Of a stretch of DNA of 64,000 bases, positions 33,881-52,948 are shown piece after piece; within the stretch, counting starts at the first letter, position 1, and every line of letters begins with the position of its first letter. The stretch comes from Candidatus Micrarchaeota archaeon (lineage in GTDB: Archaea > Micrarchaeota > Micrarchaeia > Anstonellales > Anstonellaceae). The stretch lies in assembly GCA_026396415.1 (NCBI GenBank), contig JAPLWX010000050.1, positions 15,783 to 79,782 on the forward strand. Direction: 5' to 3'. A program made the translations under genes and the position numbers. The notes beneath the pieces were generated by a model. The model did not search any database, was not told the DNA's origin, and worked only from the letters and a program-made list of their open reading frames with translations.

Positions 33881-34390
33881 TCAGTCCTGCTCCTTGTGCT
33901 CGCCGCGCCTGCCGTAAATCTTTTTCCTGCGCGCTTCGCGGAAAATGGGCGCGCCGTGGCGTTCCTCCTCCCCTCCCTGCGAGGACAGCTTCTGCTCAAA
34001 CCTGTCCCACTCGAAGTTCACGCGCAGGTGCCGCCCCGTCTCGATGTCGATAAGCACGTACTTCTGCTTCTTTATCTCAAAGTTGCGGAGCAGCAGCCCC
34101 CTTGCCTCCTCCAGCCTCATGGTATGCGCGCGGGAGCTTGTCACCATGAAGCAAAGCTCCGCGCCTGATTTCACCAGCCTCGAAAATGATGACTTGAACT
34201 CGCTGATGTTCCCGAACTGGACCTCGAACGCGGCGCATCCGCTTCCCTTCCTCATGAAGTAGAGCCAGCACGGGGACTGCGCCTCCAGGTAGCCGAACCT
34301 GAAGGCAATCGCGGAATACTGCTCGGCAAGCGTGTCTATCAGCCTTGCAGGGGGCTTTTTGACGCGCACCACTTCGTCCACGAATTCCAT
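33881..34390 (-). CDS. hypothetical protein (170 aa)
   Basis: The start is placed at the ATG (MEFVDE). No family recognised. Confidence 0.3.
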   Translation of the reverse strand: MEFVDEVVRVKKPPARLIDTLAEQYSAIAFRFGYLEAQSPCWLYFMRKGSGCAAFEVQFGNISEFKSSFSRLVKSGAELCFMVTSSRAHTMRLEEARGLLLRNFEIKKQKYVLIDIETGRHLRVNFEWDRFEQKLSSQGGEEERHGAPIFREARRKKIYGRRGEHKEQD

Positions 34391-36019: not shown

Positions 36020-36931
36020 ATGGCAGGCAAAGCAAACGAGCCAAACTATCTTGCGGCAGTGGTGGGCGGGATTTTCCTGCTCGCAGTCCTGGTGCTTGCA
36101 GCATATTCATTTTTTCCCTCCGAGGGCTGCATTGGCGTGGTGGAAATAAGCGGGCCCCTCGTTACGCAGGACATTCCATCCTCCCTATTCACAGACGAGC
36201 AGAAAGGCTCGCAAACCATTGCGGACGAGCTTGGGGAGGCAGGCGGCAGGCAGGATGTCCGCGCGGTGCTGCTGCTGATAGACTCGCCTGGCGGCTCGGT
36301 GATTGCAAGCCAGGAGATATACTCTGCGGTGCGCGCAATGAACAAGACGTCGGTGGCATTCATACGCGAGATGGCCGCGTCAGGGGGCTACTATGCAGCT
36401 GCAGGCACGGATTACATCGTGGCAAACCCGGATGCGCTCACGGGAAGCATTGGCGCGCGCGCCACGCTTTCCGACTACAGCGGGCTCATGGAAAAGCTCG
36501 GCATAAACAGTACAACGTTCAAGACAGGCGACCTCAAGGACATGGGCTCATCCGAACGCCCTATATCGGAAAAGGAGCGGGCAGTATGGCAGTCCATCGT
36601 GAATGAGAGCTTCCAATCCTTCCTCACCGCTGTCAAGGAGGGGCGCGCAGGGAAGCTCGACAGGGCGGGTTTCGAGGAAGTGCTGGATGCACGCATACTC
36701 ACGGGAAGGCAGGCGAAAAAAATAGGCCTGGTGGACGAGCTTGGCAGCAAGGACGCGGCCATTGCAGCGGCGGCGCGCCTGTCCAGCATGCCCCTTGCGC
36801 CCGGGGGCGAGCCGCGCCTCTGCGAAATATCCTCAAGCCAGAAGCGCGGCACATTGTTTGGCTCGCTTTCGGCCCAGGCGCTGCAGCTCCTGCTGCAGGG
36901 CGCGGGCGGCTTCCACGTTTCCTACAGGTGA
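36020..36931 (+). CDS. sppA: signal peptide peptidase SppA (36K type)
   Basis: An N-terminal TM is followed by DSPGGSVIASQEIYSAVRAMNKTSVAFIREMAASGGYYAA (Ser-Lys dyad region). A GGGAGG Shine-Dalgarno sequence is present. Confidence 0.8.
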   Translation: MAGKANEPNYLAAVVGGIFLLAVLVLAAYSFFPSEGCIGVVEISGPLVTQDIPSSLFTDEQKGSQTIADELGEAGGRQDVRAVLLLIDSPGGSVIASQEIYSAVRAMNKTSVAFIREMAASGGYYAAAGTDYIVANPDALTGSIGARATLSDYSGLMEKLGINSTTFKTGDLKDMGSSERPISEKERAVWQSIVNESFQSFLTAVKEGRAGKLDRAGFEEVLDARILTGRQAKKIGLVDELGSKDAAIAAAARLSSMPLAPGGEPRLCEISSSQKRGTLFGSLSAQALQLLLQGAGGFHVSYR

Positions 36932-37563
36932 ATAGGAACGGCGCCAATGCGGGAAAAAACAGGCATGAAAAGATGAAACATATGGCAAGGCAAATCGCGC
37001 TTGCATTCCTCCTTCCCATTCTCCTAGCGTGCGCTGCAATCCTGGCGGCATATTTTTTCCTCCAGGCGCAGGATAATGGCGCCATGCAGGGCGGGGAAAT
37101 TTCCATGTCATTGCCCTCCGGGCCCCTGGTATCCGGCAACACCGCCGCCCTTCGCGCGGTTTCCACCTGCGGCGCGTTTCATGTCTCATTGGACGGCTCA
37201 TGGTTTGGAAGCGGAGAGCCTTTGATTTCCAAGGGGTTTTCGCTTGAGGAAGGCAGCCACTCGTTTTTTGCGCAGGGAAAGGGCTGCAACGCCACGCTTG
37301 TGTTTTTTGTGCTTGCACGCGAGTGTGCCGGGAATGAGGCAAAGGAATGCGAAAAGAACGGCTGCCCCGGCGCGCAGGAATGCGCAGGCGGCATATTCTC
37401 GGATTGCGCGCTTCCGAAAAAAGTCTGCTCGCCAGGGGAAAAGGTGGGCTGCAGCATAAACGGCTGCTCATTTGGCTATATTACGTGCAACCCGTGCGGC
37501 ACGAGCTTCGGCAAGTGCACAGCCGGCTCTAAAAAGGAAAATGCGTCGTGCGCCGGCAATTGA
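36928..37563 (+). CDS. membrane-anchored/secreted Cys-rich protein
   Basis: Has an internal signal/TM (MARQIALAFLLPILLACAAILAAYFF) and a C-terminal Cys-rich module (CAGNEAKECEKNGCPGAQECAGG...CNPCGTSFGKC). Confidence 0.35.
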   Translation: MNRNGANAGKNRHEKMKHMARQIALAFLLPILLACAAILAAYFFLQAQDNGAMQGGEISMSLPSGPLVSGNTAALRAVSTCGAFHVSLDGSWFGSGEPLISKGFSLEEGSHSFFAQGKGCNATLVFFVLARECAGNEAKECEKNGCPGAQECAGGIFSDCALPKKVCSPGEKVGCSINGCSFGYITCNPCGTSFGKCTAGSKKENASCAGN

Positions 37564-37577
37564 GGGCAATCACTGCT

Positions 37578-39119
37578 TTACTTTTTGCGGAATTTTTGCT
37601 TGGCTGATGGCTTTGCCGCTGCCTTGCTTGCGGACGCCGCTGCCTTTGCAGGCGTGGCTGCCTTGCTTGCGGACGCCGCTGCCTTTGCAGGCGTGGCTGC
37701 CTTGCTTGCAGGCGCTGCCGCCCTTGCCGGGGGCTTTGGCTTCCTTGCAGGCTCCTCCGCCTCACCGCCTCTCCCGCCTGCTTCGCCATCGGGCTTGGCG
37801 CTCCTTCCCGCGCGCAGCTTGTTCCGTATGTCCTCAAGCTGGGTGAGCATGCTCTCCACTTCCTTCTCCTGCTCCGCCACCTCTCCCGCTATGCGCGCGT
37901 TCCTCTCAAGCTCGACAAGCTCGCTGTCCATGTCCCCGTTCGTCACCGTGCTTTCCGACCCGTCCATCTCCTGCGCGCTGAATACTTTTTCCTCGTTGCG
38001 CGCGGCTTCCTCGATTTCTGCATCAGCCTCCTCGTGCTCTTCAGGGGGCTTCGGCCCGCTTTCCTGAATGCGCCTCTTGCGGCTGTCCACCATGCGGCGG
38101 GTGGTGTCATCCAGGTTTTTTTGGTGCTCGTCTTCCGTGCCGAACGTGAACTTCTGGGAATAATTCATGCCCGGCTCGCCTTTTGCCTGCTCTTCGGCAA
38201 GCTTGGGCGCCGGCCCGGACACATCCTCCTCCTCGCGCCTTGCAGAGAGGAAATTGTAGATGATGAGCGCCACCACCGCCGCTGCAAAAATCCCCGCGAA
38301 TATCGGGAGCACGCCCAGCACCATCGGCAGGATGCCCGGGTCGGATGCGCTTGCGGCGGTTGCGGGCACACTGCCCTGCGTTGCATTCTTCCCGTATGCG
38401 ATTGTGGACACCATCTGGTAGAGCCTGTAGCCCTCTGCCGAGTAGGTGTAGCTTCCCACGCGCGTCGCCATCAGGCTCGCCGCGCCTGTGCTGCCTGTGC
38501 GCACGGCCTGGCTGCTCCCGTCAGGGTAGCCCACCACTATTTTTGCGCCAGTTATCGGCGTGCCATCCAATGACTTGAGGGAAACGGTAAGCGTGCTGTT
38601 CGCCTGGACTTGGGAAGGCGCCGAAAGCACCGCCGTGCTTGGCGCGGCAATTGCCGCCGCGTCGGGTATCCTCCCGACCGCAGCCTCGCTCACGGACGCG
38701 CCAAACTCATAGGTGACATTCCTTGTTTCCCCGCGCGAAAGTGCGGCGACTTCCCACACCGCCTGCCTTCCGTCGAACTGCGACGGGCTTGGCGAAAATG
38801 AAACCGCTGCGCCGGCAGGCACAAAGGAGAGGCTCTCGCCGATATTCACATAGTTCCTGTCAATCGAGCCGATGTTTCTCAATGAAAGCGTGACTAGCGT
38901 AAAAACAGAGCCTGACCCGCCCGCCTGCGACGTGCCGCTGTTCGCGCAGACGTCGCTGATGCCTATCTGGGAAAGCGGGCACTGCCCCGCCTTGCCGGAC
39001 TCTATGGTGCGCGTCACCTCGAGCCAGCCGTCCGAGACGTATTTCTTGGAATAGGTTTCCGCGAAAGGCATGGAAATGAATAGAAGCATGCCTATGAACA
39101 ATGCAAAAGGTTTCGCCAT
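37578..39119 (-). CDS. surface-exposed membrane protein with a cytoplasmic acidic coiled coil and a C-terminal tandem-repeat Lys/Ala tail
   Basis: Has a signal peptide MAKPFALFIGMLLFISMPFAETYSK. An Ig-like beta-rich ectodomain has N-x-S/T sequons. A TM helix reads ILPMVLGVLPIFAGIFAAAVVALIIY. A Glu-rich coiled coil follows, and then a repeat tail (ATPAKAAASASKA)x2. Confidence 0.5.
   Translation of the reverse strand: MAKPFALFIGMLLFISMPFAETYSKKYVSDGWLEVTRTIESGKAGQCPLSQIGISDVCANSGTSQAGGSGSVFTLVTLSLRNIGSIDRNYVNIGESLSFVPAGAAVSFSPSPSQFDGRQAVWEVAALSRGETRNVTYEFGASVSEAAVGRIPDAAAIAAPSTAVLSAPSQVQANSTLTVSLKSLDGTPITGAKIVVGYPDGSSQAVRTGSTGAASLMATRVGSYTYSAEGYRLYQMVSTIAYGKNATQGSVPATAASASDPGILPMVLGVLPIFAGIFAAAVVALIIYNFLSARREEEDVSGPAPKLAEEQAKGEPGMNYSQKFTFGTEDEHQKNLDDTTRRMVDSRKRRIQESGPKPPEEHEEADAEIEEAARNEEKVFSAQEMDGSESTVTNGDMDSELVELERNARIAGEVAEQEKEVESMLTQLEDIRNKLRAGRSAKPDGEAGGRGGEAEEPARKPKPPARAAAPASKAATPAKAAASASKAATPAKAAASASKAAAKPSAKQKFRKK
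37618..37730. repeat. 39-bp perfect tandem direct repeat (2 full copies and a degenerate third) inside a coding sequence
   Basis: The unit gctgccttgcttgcggacgccgctgcctttgcaggcgtg occurs at 37618-37656 and again at 37657-37695. Divergent copy follows. Confidence 0.8.
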
Positions 39120-39267
39120 GAACACACCCCTGTGGTATGCCTTTATGGTGCGTCCAGTATTTAAATCTTTGTATTTTATGGATATTTGTGGTGATGCTTC
39201 GCTGTCCCTTCCAATGGCTACCCCTCTATTTAAAATCCTTATTCGCAAAAGGATGACAGGTGCGACA

Positions 39268-39609
39268 ATGAAAGTTGACAAGGCAATGCTTTTCGTTTTC
39301 ACGCTTTCCCTGCTTGCAGGCTATGCGTTCGCAGACACCCCTACCAGCCAGCTCAAGGCAGCGCTTTCCGCGCTTTGCTGGGGGCTGAGCCAGATGGTGC
39401 CTGTTGCCGCCATGCTCATGGTGCTTCTTGCCTCTGTCATCTACGCCACCGGCCAGATGATGGGCGCGGAGACGAGGGCGCGCGCGAACGTCTGGGCGAC
39501 TTCTGCCCTCACAGGCGCCATCATAGGCATACTCATTTCGGTGATTGCGCCGTCTGTGCTCTATATAATCGCGGGCAACACCCCGATATCATGCGGGCCC
39601 GCGCCATAG
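39268..39609 (+). CDS. small secreted two-TM protein (pilin/VirB2-like architecture)
   Basis: The signal peptide is MKVDKAMLFVFTLSLLAGYAFA, followed by two hydrophobic helices. It is divergent from the surface-protein gene. The intergenic region has TATA-like tttaaat/tttaaaat elements. Confidence 0.35.
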   Translation: MKVDKAMLFVFTLSLLAGYAFADTPTSQLKAALSALCWGLSQMVPVAAMLMVLLASVIYATGQMMGAETRARANVWATSALTGAIIGILISVIAPSVLYIIAGNTPISCGPAP

Positions 39610-39652
39610 CCGCATCCAACCGCTTTTAAATTTAGGCTGCTTTTAGCCATGC

Positions 39653-41392
39653 ATGGAGCCGGCATTAGCGGTAGGGATAAGCATCACGGTCATCATGCTC
39701 TCCGCGCTGATTTTCAACAGGCTCCGCCTTCCGCACATACTGGGCGTGCTTGCTGCGGGAATACTCGTCGGCCCCTACAGCCCGATTGCAGGCCTGAGCC
39801 TCTTCGGGCTCAATTTCGGCACCATAATCATCACGGACCCGTCCCTCGTGGAAACATTCGCGGTGATGGGCGCCGCCCTCATCCTGTTCGGCATCGGGCT
39901 TGAGTTCTCGGTCATACGCCTGTGGAAAATGGGCTGGTTCACCTTCCTTGCCGCCCTCCTGAAAATAGGCATAGTGTATTTCGCGGCGCACTTCTGCCTT
40001 GCGGCAATGGGCTTTGGCACGCAGGCGGCGGTGCTCGTGGCAGTGGCGCTTTCATTCTCATCCACGCCCATAATCATAAAGCTCCTCGAGGACTCCGGCA
40101 GGATAAAGCGCCCGGAGGTGAGCTTCATAATCTCGGTGCTGGTCATCGAGGACCTGCTCGCCGTCTTCTTCCTCGGCCTCATAGCAAACCCCGTCTCCCC
40201 GGGCGAATACTCGCTTGCAGTCGCGGTGCTGCGCGTGGTGCTCACGTTCATATTCGCCTATCTCGTGCTTTCGCGCCTCATCAACAAGTTCCTCGACCTG
40301 TTCGCGCACTCCGACGAGCTCATCATCCTGTCAACCGTGAGCCTGGTCCTCGTCATCGGCTACCTCTCATCCGCAATCGGGCTTTCCTTCTCGGTAGGGG
40401 CCTTCCTTGCCGGAAGCACCATCGCCGGCTCGCCCCATTCCCGCAGGATAGAGGAGAAAATCCGGCCGTTCAACTCACTCTTTGCGTCGTTCTTCTTTTT
40501 CTCCATAGGCCTGATGGTCAACATGTCCGGAGTGCTGTCCGACCTTCCCCTGCTGTTCCTTTTCCTGGCAATAGGCATCATCGTGCGCTTTGCCGCATCC
40601 GGCTTCTCCTCGTACATGGCCGGCTTTTCCGGCAGGAATGCCTGCTTCTGCGCCGCGGTGTTCCTTTCCATGTCCGAGCTGTCGCTCCTGCTCATAAGCC
40701 AGGGCGCATCATCGGGCATATTGCAGAGGGACTTCCTGGGCAGCTTTGCATTCGCCATAATCGCCACTTCCTTCCTTTCGGCCTGGCTCATAAGCCGCGA
40801 GAACGAGGCGTACAATGCCATCCAGTCCGTGGTGCCCCAGATAGTGATAAAGAACCTGCGCCTGCTGCGCTCCACCGCGCTTGGCATGCGCCGGGCGGTC
40901 TCGGAGTCATCCCGCTATTACAGGGTGGTGGAGAAGCTGCCGACAATCGCGCACCACACCGACCAGTTCTCGGTGCGCGAGCAGCTGGTGCTCACGTCGA
41001 AAAACGCGGTGCTTCTCGGCATCGCATCCCTTGTGTGCTACCTGGGCATATTTTTCGCGCAGACCCCGGAATGGCGCTTCCTCGACCCGTTCTTCGTCTA
41101 CTTCTTCGGGGTGTTCTTCATCGCGTCCGCGCTGTTTTTGGTGAACGTGAAGTCCGCGCAGGTGTCGCTCCTCAAGATGATTGCGCGCTCAAGCTCGGGC
41201 GCTCGCTATGCCGCAATAGGGCATTTTGTCTCCATGGCATTCTTCTTCTTCCTGTGCGCGGCATACTTCTGGGCATACCTCCTTGCGCCTGCCTCGCTCT
41301 CGGTGATACTGGTGCTCCCCGCGCTCGCATTCGCGCTGCGCAGCATGCTTTCCACCTTCAAGGCGGTCTCGTCGGGCGGCGGGCGGCTGTAA
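39653..41392 (+). CDS. cation:proton antiporter (CPA2 / Na+-H+ exchanger family) with extra C-terminal membrane domain
   Basis: Contains 12 or more TM helices. Typical sequences include LAAGILVGPYSP, GLEFSV and EDLLAVFFL. 579 aa. Confidence 0.8.
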   Translation: MEPALAVGISITVIMLSALIFNRLRLPHILGVLAAGILVGPYSPIAGLSLFGLNFGTIIITDPSLVETFAVMGAALILFGIGLEFSVIRLWKMGWFTFLAALLKIGIVYFAAHFCLAAMGFGTQAAVLVAVALSFSSTPIIIKLLEDSGRIKRPEVSFIISVLVIEDLLAVFFLGLIANPVSPGEYSLAVAVLRVVLTFIFAYLVLSRLINKFLDLFAHSDELIILSTVSLVLVIGYLSSAIGLSFSVGAFLAGSTIAGSPHSRRIEEKIRPFNSLFASFFFFSIGLMVNMSGVLSDLPLLFLFLAIGIIVRFAASGFSSYMAGFSGRNACFCAAVFLSMSELSLLLISQGASSGILQRDFLGSFAFAIIATSFLSAWLISRENEAYNAIQSVVPQIVIKNLRLLRSTALGMRRAVSESSRYYRVVEKLPTIAHHTDQFSVREQLVLTSKNAVLLGIASLVCYLGIFFAQTPEWRFLDPFFVYFFGVFFIASALFLVNVKSAQVSLLKMIARSSSGARYAAIGHFVSMAFFFFLCAAYFWAYLLAPASLSVILVLPALAFALRSMLSTFKAVSSGGGRL

Positions 41393-41573
41393 GGAAAATG
41401 GCGCGCGCATTCCTTCCACCGGCACAGTCAAATCCAGAAGGATTTGGCGTGCAGTGCACTGAAAGTGCACCGGCATCCTGCCCTGCGCATATTTTTAAGC
41501 CATTTTTCCGTTATTTTCGCCATGAACAACCCACCCCGTAATGTGCAACCATTAAATATCCAGCATATCATTG

Positions 41574-41583
41574 AATGTACATT
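41574..41583. promoter_or_regulatory. 10-nt palindrome AATGTACATT upstream of the second RHH antitoxin; candidate operator, with GGTGAG Shine-Dalgarno-like at 41585-41590
   Basis: Seen directly. The arrangement is the same as at the first RHH locus. Confidence 0.3.
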
Positions 41584-41593
41584 GGGTGAGCAT

Positions 41594-41824
41594 ATGAATG
41601 TAAATTTGGGCGAATACTACCAGGCAATAATCGGCAAGGCGATACAAAAAGGGCTTGCCGGCAACCAGACCGAAGTGATACGCCAGGCGCTCCTTGACTA
41701 TGGGCGCAAGCTTGACGATGAAGAGGCGATGCTTGTCGAGCGCGGCGTGCGCGCTGAAATGGAAAAGATGAAGGGCAAGAAGTGGACTTCGCAGGCGCAG
41801 CTGAAAAAGGAACTGGGTCTTTGA
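41594..41824 (+). CDS. RHH-like antitoxin (paralog of the 4403 gene; shares MNVNL N-terminus)
   Basis: 77 aa. The sequence MNVNLGEYYQAIIGKAIQKGLAGNQTEVIRQALLDY is followed by a charged tail. Its stop abuts the relE ATG. Confidence 0.5.
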   Translation: MNVNLGEYYQAIIGKAIQKGLAGNQTEVIRQALLDYGRKLDDEEAMLVERGVRAEMEKMKGKKWTSQAQLKKELGL

Positions 41825-42085
41825 ATGGAAATCGACTGGTCTGACGAGGCAAAAAAAGACGTCAAGGCATTTGAAAGGAAGCTACAAGGCTTCTTCCTTT
41901 CCCATATTGAAAAGCTCGCCTGCATGCCGCCTCGCCGCCACCTGAAGCACGGCCTCCCCTGGAACGTGGAAGATGTTACAAAACAGGCACGCCTCGTCTA
42001 CTTGGCAGACGGTGATGTCCTTCGTGTCATCCGCTGCTTTGCCACGCACAAGGAATACCAGAGATGGTACCAGTCGTACAGGTGA
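41825..42085 (+). CDS. relE: RelE/ParE family toxin
   Basis: The sequence MEIDWSDEAKKDVKAFERKLQGFFLSHIEKLA...RLVYLADGDVLRVIRCFATHKEY fits the RelE/ParE fold pattern. Confidence 0.65.
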   Translation: MEIDWSDEAKKDVKAFERKLQGFFLSHIEKLACMPPRRHLKHGLPWNVEDVTKQARLVYLADGDVLRVIRCFATHKEYQRWYQSYR

Positions 42086-51107: not shown

Positions 51108-51380
51108 ACCTTTCTCCTTATACTAGAGCCTGCGAGTTTTGTCCCCTGGCGATGCGGGGACGAGTCACGTTTGCTGATGCCACGGTGGCATACCGGAACT
51201 GAATTGACCTTAGATTCGGTCATCTCGCGCGCAGGCACGCCGAACAAATGGAAACGCGATCCTTTCGCGTTCGACGCACGCTTCAGGCAACTACAAGGAA
51301 AGAGCGATTAGAGTGCTAAACCGCTGATCATTAAGATCAGCCAATGAATGCGGAAAAAATAAGGATTAAGTCTTCTATGA

Positions 51381-52948
<1,568 letters not shown>

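Follow-up and report, generated by a model that had tools for sequence, protein, structure and literature searches.

A predicted single-pass surface protein with a repeat-bearing basic tail and its small VirB2/TrbC-like neighbour in a Micrarchaeota genome

Among the described systems closest to the locus considered here, the VirB2-like arrays of Patescibacteria (the candidate phyla radiation, CPR) comprise 2–11 copies with an average identity of 25%, lie near virB4 in many genomes and are essential in one cultured strain for epibiotic growth (PMC12102498). On the archaeal side, the surface layer (S-layer) of Ca. Micrarchaeum harzensis may be anchored by an unidentified transmembrane (TM) 'stalk' protein (10.1101/2021.04.28.441871), and nanohaloarchaea have giant immunoglobulin (Ig)-like proteins with a cytoplasmic VirB4-like ATPase, near a 'proteasome activator' (PMC10266531). 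The present study concerns two neighbouring genes of a Candidatus Micrarchaeota member (a DPANN archaeon), carried by a chromosomal segment of 64,000 nt (assembly GCA_026396415.1, contig JAPLWX010000050.1, positions 15,783 to 79,782; GC 55%), hereafter called the window: a large gene, encoding a 513-aa type-I membrane surface protein, and a small gene, encoding a 113-aa secreted two-helix membrane protein that resembles VirB2/TrbC. Micrarchaeota are ultra-small archaea that depend on a host, and very little is known of the biology of their cell surface; the two genes define two uncharacterised, apparently lineage-wide envelope families, i.e., (i) single-pass Ig-like surface proteins with a conserved acidic-then-basic cytoplasmic part, which may bind nucleic acid, and (ii) highly conserved, multi-copy VirB2-like proteins. 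If either function were true, it would provide a handle on DPANN envelope organisation or host contact. The comparison of gene order indicates in addition that the large and small genes are not kept together as a pair outside the close relatives of the window, and that the small gene belongs with the exchanger gene located downstream of it.

The large gene (NTX79_08510) occupies positions 37578..39119 on the reverse strand, from an ATG at 39117-39119 to a stop codon at 37578-37580, and the small gene (NTX79_08515) occupies positions 39268..39609 on the forward strand, where its assignment draws on homologues, profile matches and an AlphaFold2 (AF2) model. Both products are 100% identical to hypothetical proteins of an NCBI metagenome-assembled genome (MAG), the large one over the 513 residues of the entry P0001. 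The N-termini of 25 homologues align at the Met chosen for the large protein, for which the first-pass annotation of this DNA had counted 514 residues; the actual length is 513, since the extra triplet (39120-39122) is a Phe codon situated 5′ of the ATG. Longer open reading frame (ORF) starts, which would give 574 aa from a GTG at 39302 and 179 aa from an ATG at 39070, were considered and set aside, since homologue N-termini, Shine-Dalgarno-like sites and TATA positions favour the shorter ones. For the small gene, such a site (GGTG, 39259-39262) stands 5–9 nt 5′ of its ATG (39268).

The domain layout first read from the letters of the large gene (signal peptide, beta-rich ectodomain, TM helix, Glu-rich coiled-coil part and basic tail) is borne out by the agreement of hydropathy, composition and an AF2 model built on 26 homologues. 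All its parts are given below on the reverse strand. The signal peptide (residues 1-20, MAKPFALFIGMLLFISMPFA, then ETY; 39060..39119) has its hydropathy peak at residues 1-6, and the first modelled beta-strand starts directly after it; an N-terminal hydrophobic stretch with a small residue at its end is kept throughout the family. The ectodomain then consists of two beta-sandwiches, the first of which (about residues 21-157; 38649..39059) is DUF11-like, modelled with a predicted local distance difference test (pLDDT) score >90 except for the loop 50-70, and carries a Cys pair (C47 and C58) that is invariant in the closer-family alignment. The second (about residues 161-242; 38394..38639) is CarboxypepD_reg/transthyretin-like, with a pLDDT of 91–97, and precomputed PF13620 or PF01345 matches are present on several homologues. 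Three N-glycosylation sequons are found in the ectodomain, where such sites had been proposed, two of them being retained in 17/26 and 19/26 relatives. Foldseek searches with the large model returned generic matches only, to Ig-like domains of integrins and of pilins from Gram-positive bacteria (E about 3e-4). Compared to the Ig-like/CnaB domains of Gram-positive pilins and adhesins (BcpA, 3rkp; EbpB, 9m00) and to DUF11/CarboxypepD_reg, the large protein shares two tandem extracellular beta-sandwiches; however, the match is weak (E about 3e-4, TM-score about 0.1 for the whole model), the likeness remains generic, and the large protein is held in the membrane by a TM helix that leads into a long cytoplasmic part.

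This single TM helix (about residues 262-292; 38244..38336) is defined by a Kyte-Doolittle window >2.0 at 262-276 and by an AF2 helix at 265-297, bears a YNF..R motif conserved among homologues, and is directly followed by Arg-Arg and then by an acidic run. The acidic segment (about residues 293-394; 37938..38243) comprises a variable Glu/Asp linker and conserved motifs (YSQKFSFG and TR..VESRKRRMQE, the latter in a helix at about 329-353) that are kept in the close-homologue and closer-family alignments; residues 294-440 comprise 20% Glu and have a net charge of −17. An amphipathic, heptad-patterned helix follows (about residues 395-438, ending ...ELERNARIAGEVAEQEKEVESMLTQLEDIRNKLRAGR; 37806..37937), modelled by AF2 at 396-439 with a pLDDT of 83–91, and its profile matches the laminin coiled coil (E 1.6e-3); a coiled coil is its probable structure. 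The possibility that this conserved helix is ESCRT MIM-like was rejected, the residue register being mismatched with the MIM consensus. Finally, the Ala/Lys/Pro tail (about residues 440-513; 37581..37802) is basic in composition and disordered (pLDDT <50), and within residues 441-513 it comprises 36% Ala, 18% Lys and 12% Pro for a net charge of +12. We infer that this tail lies inside the cell, as had been expected, because of the signal peptide, the single TM helix, the positive charges (Arg-Arg) after it, and the confinement of the invariant Cys pair and the sequons to the N-terminal part.

A word-indexed search identified 30 close homologues of the large protein, and an exhaustive profile search of 1.84e9 cluster representatives gave 377 matches with E<=1e-3, including 62 with E<=1e-30; among the top 50 profile matches listed, most span nearly the whole profile. 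The family looks restricted to Micrarchaeota, as all annotated matches come from this lineage, the library of representatives carrying no taxonomy. The gene is chromosomal and single-copy, and its product matched nothing in NCBIfam or in the PADLOC defence models. The architecture persists at 20–25% identity, with the ectodomain as the best-conserved part; the helix motif (I/L)xELExIRxKLR is retained, without any change at L428, E429 and R432 in members as distant as 20% identity. Within 55 members, the segment from the TM helix to the heptad-patterned helix is acidic in all (net −5 to −34, median −18) and the last 30 aa are basic (net +1 to +15, median +10), with a tail length ranging from 17 to 155 aa. 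The tail of the window protein is the most Ala-rich of the 55 (36%), and with 78 aa it exceeds those of its other close relatives (30–59 aa), except P0015 and P0016 (69–74 aa). These alignments indicate that the tail sequence is not conserved, and that the charge pattern (an acidic block, then a basic C-terminus) is.

The reading that we favour, and to which we give about an even chance, is that of a single-pass envelope protein whose polycationic cytoplasmic tail binds a polyanion, with the small gene as a separate unit. The Sec signal peptide would export the two Ig-like beta-sandwich domains, and the TM helix would anchor the protein in the membrane, leaving in the cytoplasm the acidic disordered segment, the heptad-patterned helix as a putative coiled coil and the polycationic disordered C-terminus. 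In this way, the large protein would connect a cytoplasmic polyanion, most likely nucleic acid (the nucleoid), with an element at the cell surface, which may be the S-layer, a contact partner or another envelope protein. A 39-bp repeat in the tail-coding region is a recent in-frame duplication inside a length-tolerant tail, and the small gene, followed by a Na+/H+ exchanger gene, forms its own unit, which a rearrangement in the common ancestor of the window's clade moved beside the large gene. The anatomy and the gene order are directly observed here, whereas the coiled coil, the inside position of the tail and its binding to a polyanion are inferred.

The lead towards nucleic acid comes from divergent relatives of the window protein. 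AT-hook-like GRP[RKPS] motifs occur in the tails of 13/104 members, all of them divergent from the window protein, and the 22 motifs found compare with 2.7 +/− 1.6 in composition-preserving shuffles (maximum 9 in 2000), i.e., an enrichment of about 8-fold. Examples are KRGRPPKKKR, SRGRPSKKK and the four GPGRPPKK copies of P0237; the tails concerned include P0198, P0200, P0208, P0216, P0223, P0230 and P0237, together with the loci L101 (2766-4688) and L102 (5001-6683), and the members bearing these motifs occupy a positionally equivalent locus. R-G-R-P cores with basic flanks bind the DNA minor groove, and DNA is also the ligand of the Ala/Lys/Pro tails of H1, AlgP and mycobacterial HupB. Like the H1 C-terminal domain, the HMGA AT-hooks, AlgP and HupB, the window tail is disordered, Lys/Ala/Pro-rich, repeat-built and basic (less so than H1), with TPAK motifs, and divergent family members have R-G-R-P-type AT-hook cores; in contrast, the window tail has no sequence homology to them and is carried by a membrane protein with an acidic block before the tail. 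The histone-H1-like character attributed to the tail by the first-pass annotation stands only as a loose compositional likeness, accompanied by the family-wide basic C-terminus and by the AT-hook-like motifs of divergent members, and it does not extend to sequence homology or to Lys content. As a functional analogy, tethers of the membrane to the nucleoid or to chromatin, such as bacterial Noc and the eukaryotic lamin B receptor, are also membrane-bound with a basic, disordered, nucleic-acid-binding cytoplasmic segment, as proposed here; they differ by the absence of homology and of any extracellular Ig-like module, and the function proposed here draws on composition and motifs alone. Overall, the conserved basic C-terminus and the AT-hook-like motifs point to polyanion or DNA binding. 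Nucleic acid appears to be the most likely ligand of the tail, an assignment that we make tentatively and with less than even confidence, the alternatives being that the tail binds the head groups of anionic lipids, or that it pairs with the acidic block of the same molecule.

Several points weigh against this reading. The Pfam AT_hook model is silent on the tails with GRP motifs, whose assignment rests on the motif and the shuffle test, and these motifs occur in 13 of 104 members only, with none in the window's clade. The Lys content of the window tail (18%) is far below that of true H1 tails, which are roughly 40% Lys. When searched in isolation against Pfam and the PDB, neither the tail nor the acidic/coiled-coil segment gave a meaningful match, and the cytoplasmic part displayed no homology to known DNA-, RNA- or lipid-binding domains in Pfam, PDB and NCBIfam searches. 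On the outer side, the matches of the ectodomain stay below their cut-offs (DUF11, PF01345, on beta-sandwich 1: E 0.029, 15.1 bits versus 24.6; CarboxypepD_reg, PF13620, on beta-sandwich 2: E 0.0012, 19.6 bits versus 32.3). The topology is reasoned from sequence features, the assembly of a MAG could have collapsed a longer repeat array, and the protein may have an envelope-structural role without any cytoplasmic ligand.

The small protein belongs to a second family, with 517 homologues, in which the named matches and all 62 GTDB loci come from Micrarchaeota or from unclassified archaeal MAGs. Its members are 60–85% identical, and the loop GQMMGAETRARANVWATS, Cys37 and Cys109 are invariant over 35 aligned members. 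The AF2 model (mean pLDDT 85) has helices at 3-20 (signal peptide), 26-63 and 67-101, the last two forming a hairpin, a layout that corresponds to the signal peptide, the two hydrophobic helices and the short basic loop of VirB2/TrbC. At E<=0.05, 31/35 members matched PF18895 and 23/35 matched PF04956, the lowest E-value (5e-7) being for PF04956, and TrwL was the top match to the small protein both in the PDB (E 0.064, in register) and in NCBIfam (NF033899, E 7.7e-4). Note that the window protein itself stays under every curated cut-off (15.7 versus 27.9, 13.2 versus 26.6 and 19.8 versus 100 bits, for E-values of 0.017, 0.095 and 7.7e-4, respectively), and that fold searches cannot discriminate helical hairpins. 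The first-pass description of a pilin-like protein is thus retained for the signal peptide, the two hydrophobic helices and a weak, consistent homology to VirB2/TrbC, but not as a family assignment above cut-off for the window copy; the profile evidence for a VirB2-like ancestry is weak but consistent.

Compared to the VirB2/TrbC/TrwL pilins (PF04956, PF18895, NF033899, PDB 8s6h), the small protein shares a cleavable Sec-type signal peptide, a mature length of about 90 aa, two hydrophobic helices, a short Arg-containing loop and both termini predicted outside the cell. It differs by the invariance of its loop over the 35 aligned members, which is unusual for pilins, and by its genomic surroundings, as ORF clustering revealed no neighbour of VirB4/VirB6/VirD4 size class and no recurrent neighbour like those of type IV secretion systems (T4SSs) at the small-gene loci. 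The Cys37/Cys109 pair might replace the head-to-tail cyclisation of TrbC/VirB2. Within about 5 kb of the 62 loci, the clustered (and not profile-searched) neighbour ORFs included no T4SS ATPase-sized or recurrent T4SS-like gene and corresponded to housekeeping genes only, and none of the ten largest ORFs of the window was T4SS-like. Likewise, tblastn of the small protein against 72,556 plasmids and the PADLOC defence models returned no match, and no relevant literature linking Micrarchaeota to VirB2 or type IV secretion was found.

The window gene is the 'class A' copy of a multi-copy family, for which other Micrarchaeota display arrays of 2–7 tandem paralogues (L026 3919-5708; L028 3574-6241; L036 4177-5697; L046 4276-5796; L047 4600-5693; L048 4395-5876). 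Within these arrays, the identity ranges from 50 to 76% and the loop GQMMGAETRARAN is invariant; directly downstream of the arrays comes a PAC2-family (PF09754) gene and, in the usual case, an Fe/Mn superoxide dismutase gene after it. By analogy, the closest counterpart of the small family appears to be the VirB2-like arrays of Patescibacteria, as both are chromosomal tandem arrays (2–11 copies in CPR versus 2–7 in Micrarchaeota) in ultra-small host-dependent lineages. However, the Micrarchaeota arrays are internally far less divergent (50–76% identity), and their neighbours are the PAC2 and superoxide dismutase genes, without any gene of T4SS ATPase size in the vicinity. The tandem arrays of the small family, which have no adjacent T4SS-like genes, parallel those of CPR (PMC12102498). 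In addition, a comparison of the nanohaloarchaeal genes mentioned above with the arrays L026-L048 suggests that a link between T4SS-related and PAC2-like genes may recur in DPANN.

Downstream of the small gene, positions 39653..41392 (forward strand) encode a 579-aa CPA2-type Na+/H+ (cation/proton) exchanger (Pfam PF00999, E 2.6e-42; TIGR00932). The 43-nt spacer between the two (39610-39652) contains TTTTAAATTT about 26 nt upstream of the exchanger ATG, which suggests a separate promoter and a leaderless mRNA for the exchanger rather than strict co-transcription. The small gene adjoins the exchanger on the same strand in about 25 GTDB loci and in L004-L006, and in 16 loci it precedes the exchanger without any large gene, NFACT-R being a recurrent divergent neighbour (11 loci in the clustering).

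From this association, it could be proposed that the small protein is not a pilin but an accessory subunit of the adjacent CPA2 antiporter, or of another housekeeping membrane complex, and that its VirB2 likeness is that of a generic hairpin. The same-strand adjacency, with 36–190 nt between the genes, extends across Micrarchaeota, the invariant cytoplasmic loop suggests a conserved protein partner, and both the lack of T4SS-like neighbours and the inability of fold searches to tell hairpins apart would fit such a role. However, VirB2-type pilins came first in three independent libraries (with the PF04956, PF18895 and TrwL matches given above), the arrays of 2–7 paralogues stand beside a PAC2-family gene and not a transporter, and the exchanger appears to have its own TATA box. 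The wider region is also syntenic, so that the adjacency may reflect only a conserved gene order. We consider this explanation rather unlikely, although it has to be kept in view.

For the large protein, the corresponding alternative is a purely structural role, e.g., as an SlaB-like stalk or anchor of the S-layer, in which the tail would fix the topology or bind anionic lipids. The S-layer protein of Ca. Micrarchaeum harzensis has no clear anchor and may need a TM 'stalk' protein (10.1101/2021.04.28.441871), a role for which the large protein is a candidate. The high conservation of the ectodomain agrees with this role, as does the position of a single-copy gene among housekeeping envelope genes (SppA, CDP-archaeol synthase), and membrane-adjacent basic tails are generally known to bind anionic lipids. 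In contrast, fixing the topology does not require the conservation of about 220 cytoplasmic residues, with their invariant helix motif and the AT-hook-like motifs of some members, and the ectodomain is short (about 240 aa) with no extracellular coiled coil, unlike SlaB. A purely structural role seems unlikely to us.

A bolder reading goes beyond the one that we favour. The large family would be an undescribed archaeal membrane-nucleoid tether, combining an Ig-like receptor, a TM helix, a coiled coil and a DNA-binding tail that is H1-like in the window's clade and made of AT-hooks elsewhere; separately, the VirB2-like family would build a filament or conduit without a classical T4SS, in analogy to the essential pilin arrays of CPR. 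This proposal is speculative and we hold it to be distinctly unlikely. If the tether were true, what happens at the surface of a host-dependent DPANN archaeon would be linked physically to its chromosome.

The first-pass annotation had presented the large and small genes as a functional divergent pair sharing a 150-bp intergenic region with TATA-like boxes in both orientations. The spacer is 148 bp long (39120-39267), and it does contain two TATA-like boxes, one per gene, that are conserved in related loci. On the reverse strand, a nearly invariant 48-nt upstream block of the large gene (TGGTGCGTCCAGTATTTAAATCTTTGTATTTTATGGATATTTGTGGTG; 39146..39193, block 1) was delimited from invariant alignment columns and includes the TATA box at about 39158-39166. 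It was found with <=9 mismatches in 24 loci whose proteins are only 56–75% identical, and it is more conserved than the coding sequence. Block 1 extends about 28 nt upstream beyond the TATA box, an extension that suggests a regulator-binding site. On the forward strand, the TATA box/promoter block of the small gene (TTTAAAATCCTTATTCGCAAAAGGAT; 39229..39254, block 2) is conserved in 17 loci. Blocks 1 and 2 represent two independent promoters and not a shared regulatory unit.

Genomic contexts were compared in about 100 loci. In the window's clade (large protein >=56% identical, about 15 distinct contigs), the gene order is Na+/H+ exchanger ← small ← → large ← Cys-rich ← SppA → CarS; in deeper clades (20–39% identity), it is HD ← x ← AMMECR1 ← → ~165-aa gene → large. 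None of the 10 deeper loci for which >=1.8 kb of upstream sequence is available has the small gene; all of them carry the ~165-aa gene instead, as a co-directional upstream neighbour of the large gene (e.g., L088 2638-3147; L091 3327-3833; L101 2169-2657; L102 4428-4922). In the clade at 32–39% identity, the stretch beyond the large gene still comprises the Cys-rich, SppA and CarS genes, and in the most distant loci (L071, L101 and L102) other genes lie downstream of it. The homologue of the ~165-aa gene in the window (MEFIDE...LNKSGAQIC, no Pfam family) sits apart at about 33881-34390 on the reverse strand, so that a lineage-specific rearrangement created the large/small adjacency in the window's clade. 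In the locus L077 (1174-3941) of one close relative, the small and large genes stand apart because of an insertion of about 2.7 kb.

A single divergent module, i.e., a VirB2-like pilus with the large protein as its anchor or adhesin under a shared bidirectional promoter region, would agree with the head-to-head order and the ~150-bp spacer of the about 15 window-clade contigs, with the strong conservation of both blocks, and with the export or membrane location of both products. However, this module is largely refuted by synteny, and we regard it as very improbable: the small gene is missing from the deeper large-gene loci, it precedes the exchanger alone in the 16 loci cited above, and its family has further paralogues and arrays elsewhere. 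Moreover, block 1 stays with the large gene in L077 despite the 2.7 kb that separates it from the small gene. The idea of a functional divergent pair is not supported.

The tail of the large protein is encoded in part by a 39-bp in-frame tandem repeat (37618..37727), translated as (ATPAKAAASASKA)n and delimited by Tandem Repeats Finder (TRF) and exact unit comparison. As first reported, perfect direct repeats occupy 37618-37695: the units 37618-37656 and 37657-37695 are identical, and the period-39 identity is perfect over 37618-37709 (92 nt, 2.36 copies), with a third, degenerate unit in which 9/39 positions differ. TRF gave a period of 39, 2.8 copies, 92% matches and a score of 185, compared to 41 for the next-best array in the window, and found sub-periods of 21 and 18 bp beneath the 39-bp unit. 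A perfect 39-bp tandem copy is impossible by chance. The repeat arose when 13 codons, built from an older, degenerate Ala/Ser/Lys motif of 6–7 residues, were recently duplicated in frame. Among close homologues, tail expansions are limited to the window protein, P0015 and P0016. Because the latter two have 21-bp tandem repeats of their own in the equivalent part of the tail, the tail appears as a recurrent site of tandem duplication, which three lineages have lengthened independently. The repeat does not form a functional module apart from the tail; it is an ordinary duplication of recent origin, located where a disordered tail tolerates changes of length.

The expected change of length by slippage is plausible in view of these three expansions, but public data display no strain-level polymorphism: the 90%-identity cluster of the protein has one member, and the 32-nt repeat core gave 0 exact matches in JGI metagenome contigs. 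Although two identical units imply a very recent event and two other lineages have expanded the equivalent site independently, a contingency locus, whose copy number would switch or tune the protein within populations, seems very improbable, since an in-frame 13-codon unit within the coding sequence near its 3′ end, in a cytoplasmic disordered tail, changes only the length and leaves the frame, the expression and any surface epitope unswitched, since the copies number only 2.4–2.8, and since no variant allele is present in public data.

On the other side of the large gene and convergent with it, an ORF at 36928..37563 (forward strand) encodes a membrane-anchored, Cys-rich secreted protein of about 195–211 aa, for which no Pfam family, NCBIfam match or PADLOC match was found. 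It is preceded by the gene of the signal peptide peptidase SppA (S49; 36020..36931, forward strand; PF01343, E 4.6e-40; TIGR00706 above cut-off), which belongs to the syntenic block. The Cys-rich gene adjoins the large gene in the loci of the window's clade and of the 32–39% clade (25/30 loci of one set), and not in L071, L101 and L102; it is present without the large gene in L049 and L067. It overlaps the 3′ end of the SppA gene by 4 nt, and both travel together across Micrarchaeota whether the large gene is present or not, which suggests an SppA-associated envelope protein.

Elsewhere in the window, an archaeal 16S rRNA gene lies at 51380-52948. It is solitary, as no 23S rRNA, 5S rRNA or tRNA gene was detected across the 64 kb, an arrangement consistent with unlinked rRNA genes. 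Beyond the exchanger, positions 41444-42085 (forward strand) contain a ParD/RHH-type antitoxin-like gene (126-aa ORF) followed by an 86-aa ORF. This couple of genes is absent from the corresponding place in L004-L006, and it resembles a toxin-antitoxin pair, which would have been inserted after the exchanger and ahead of the conserved genes farther downstream.

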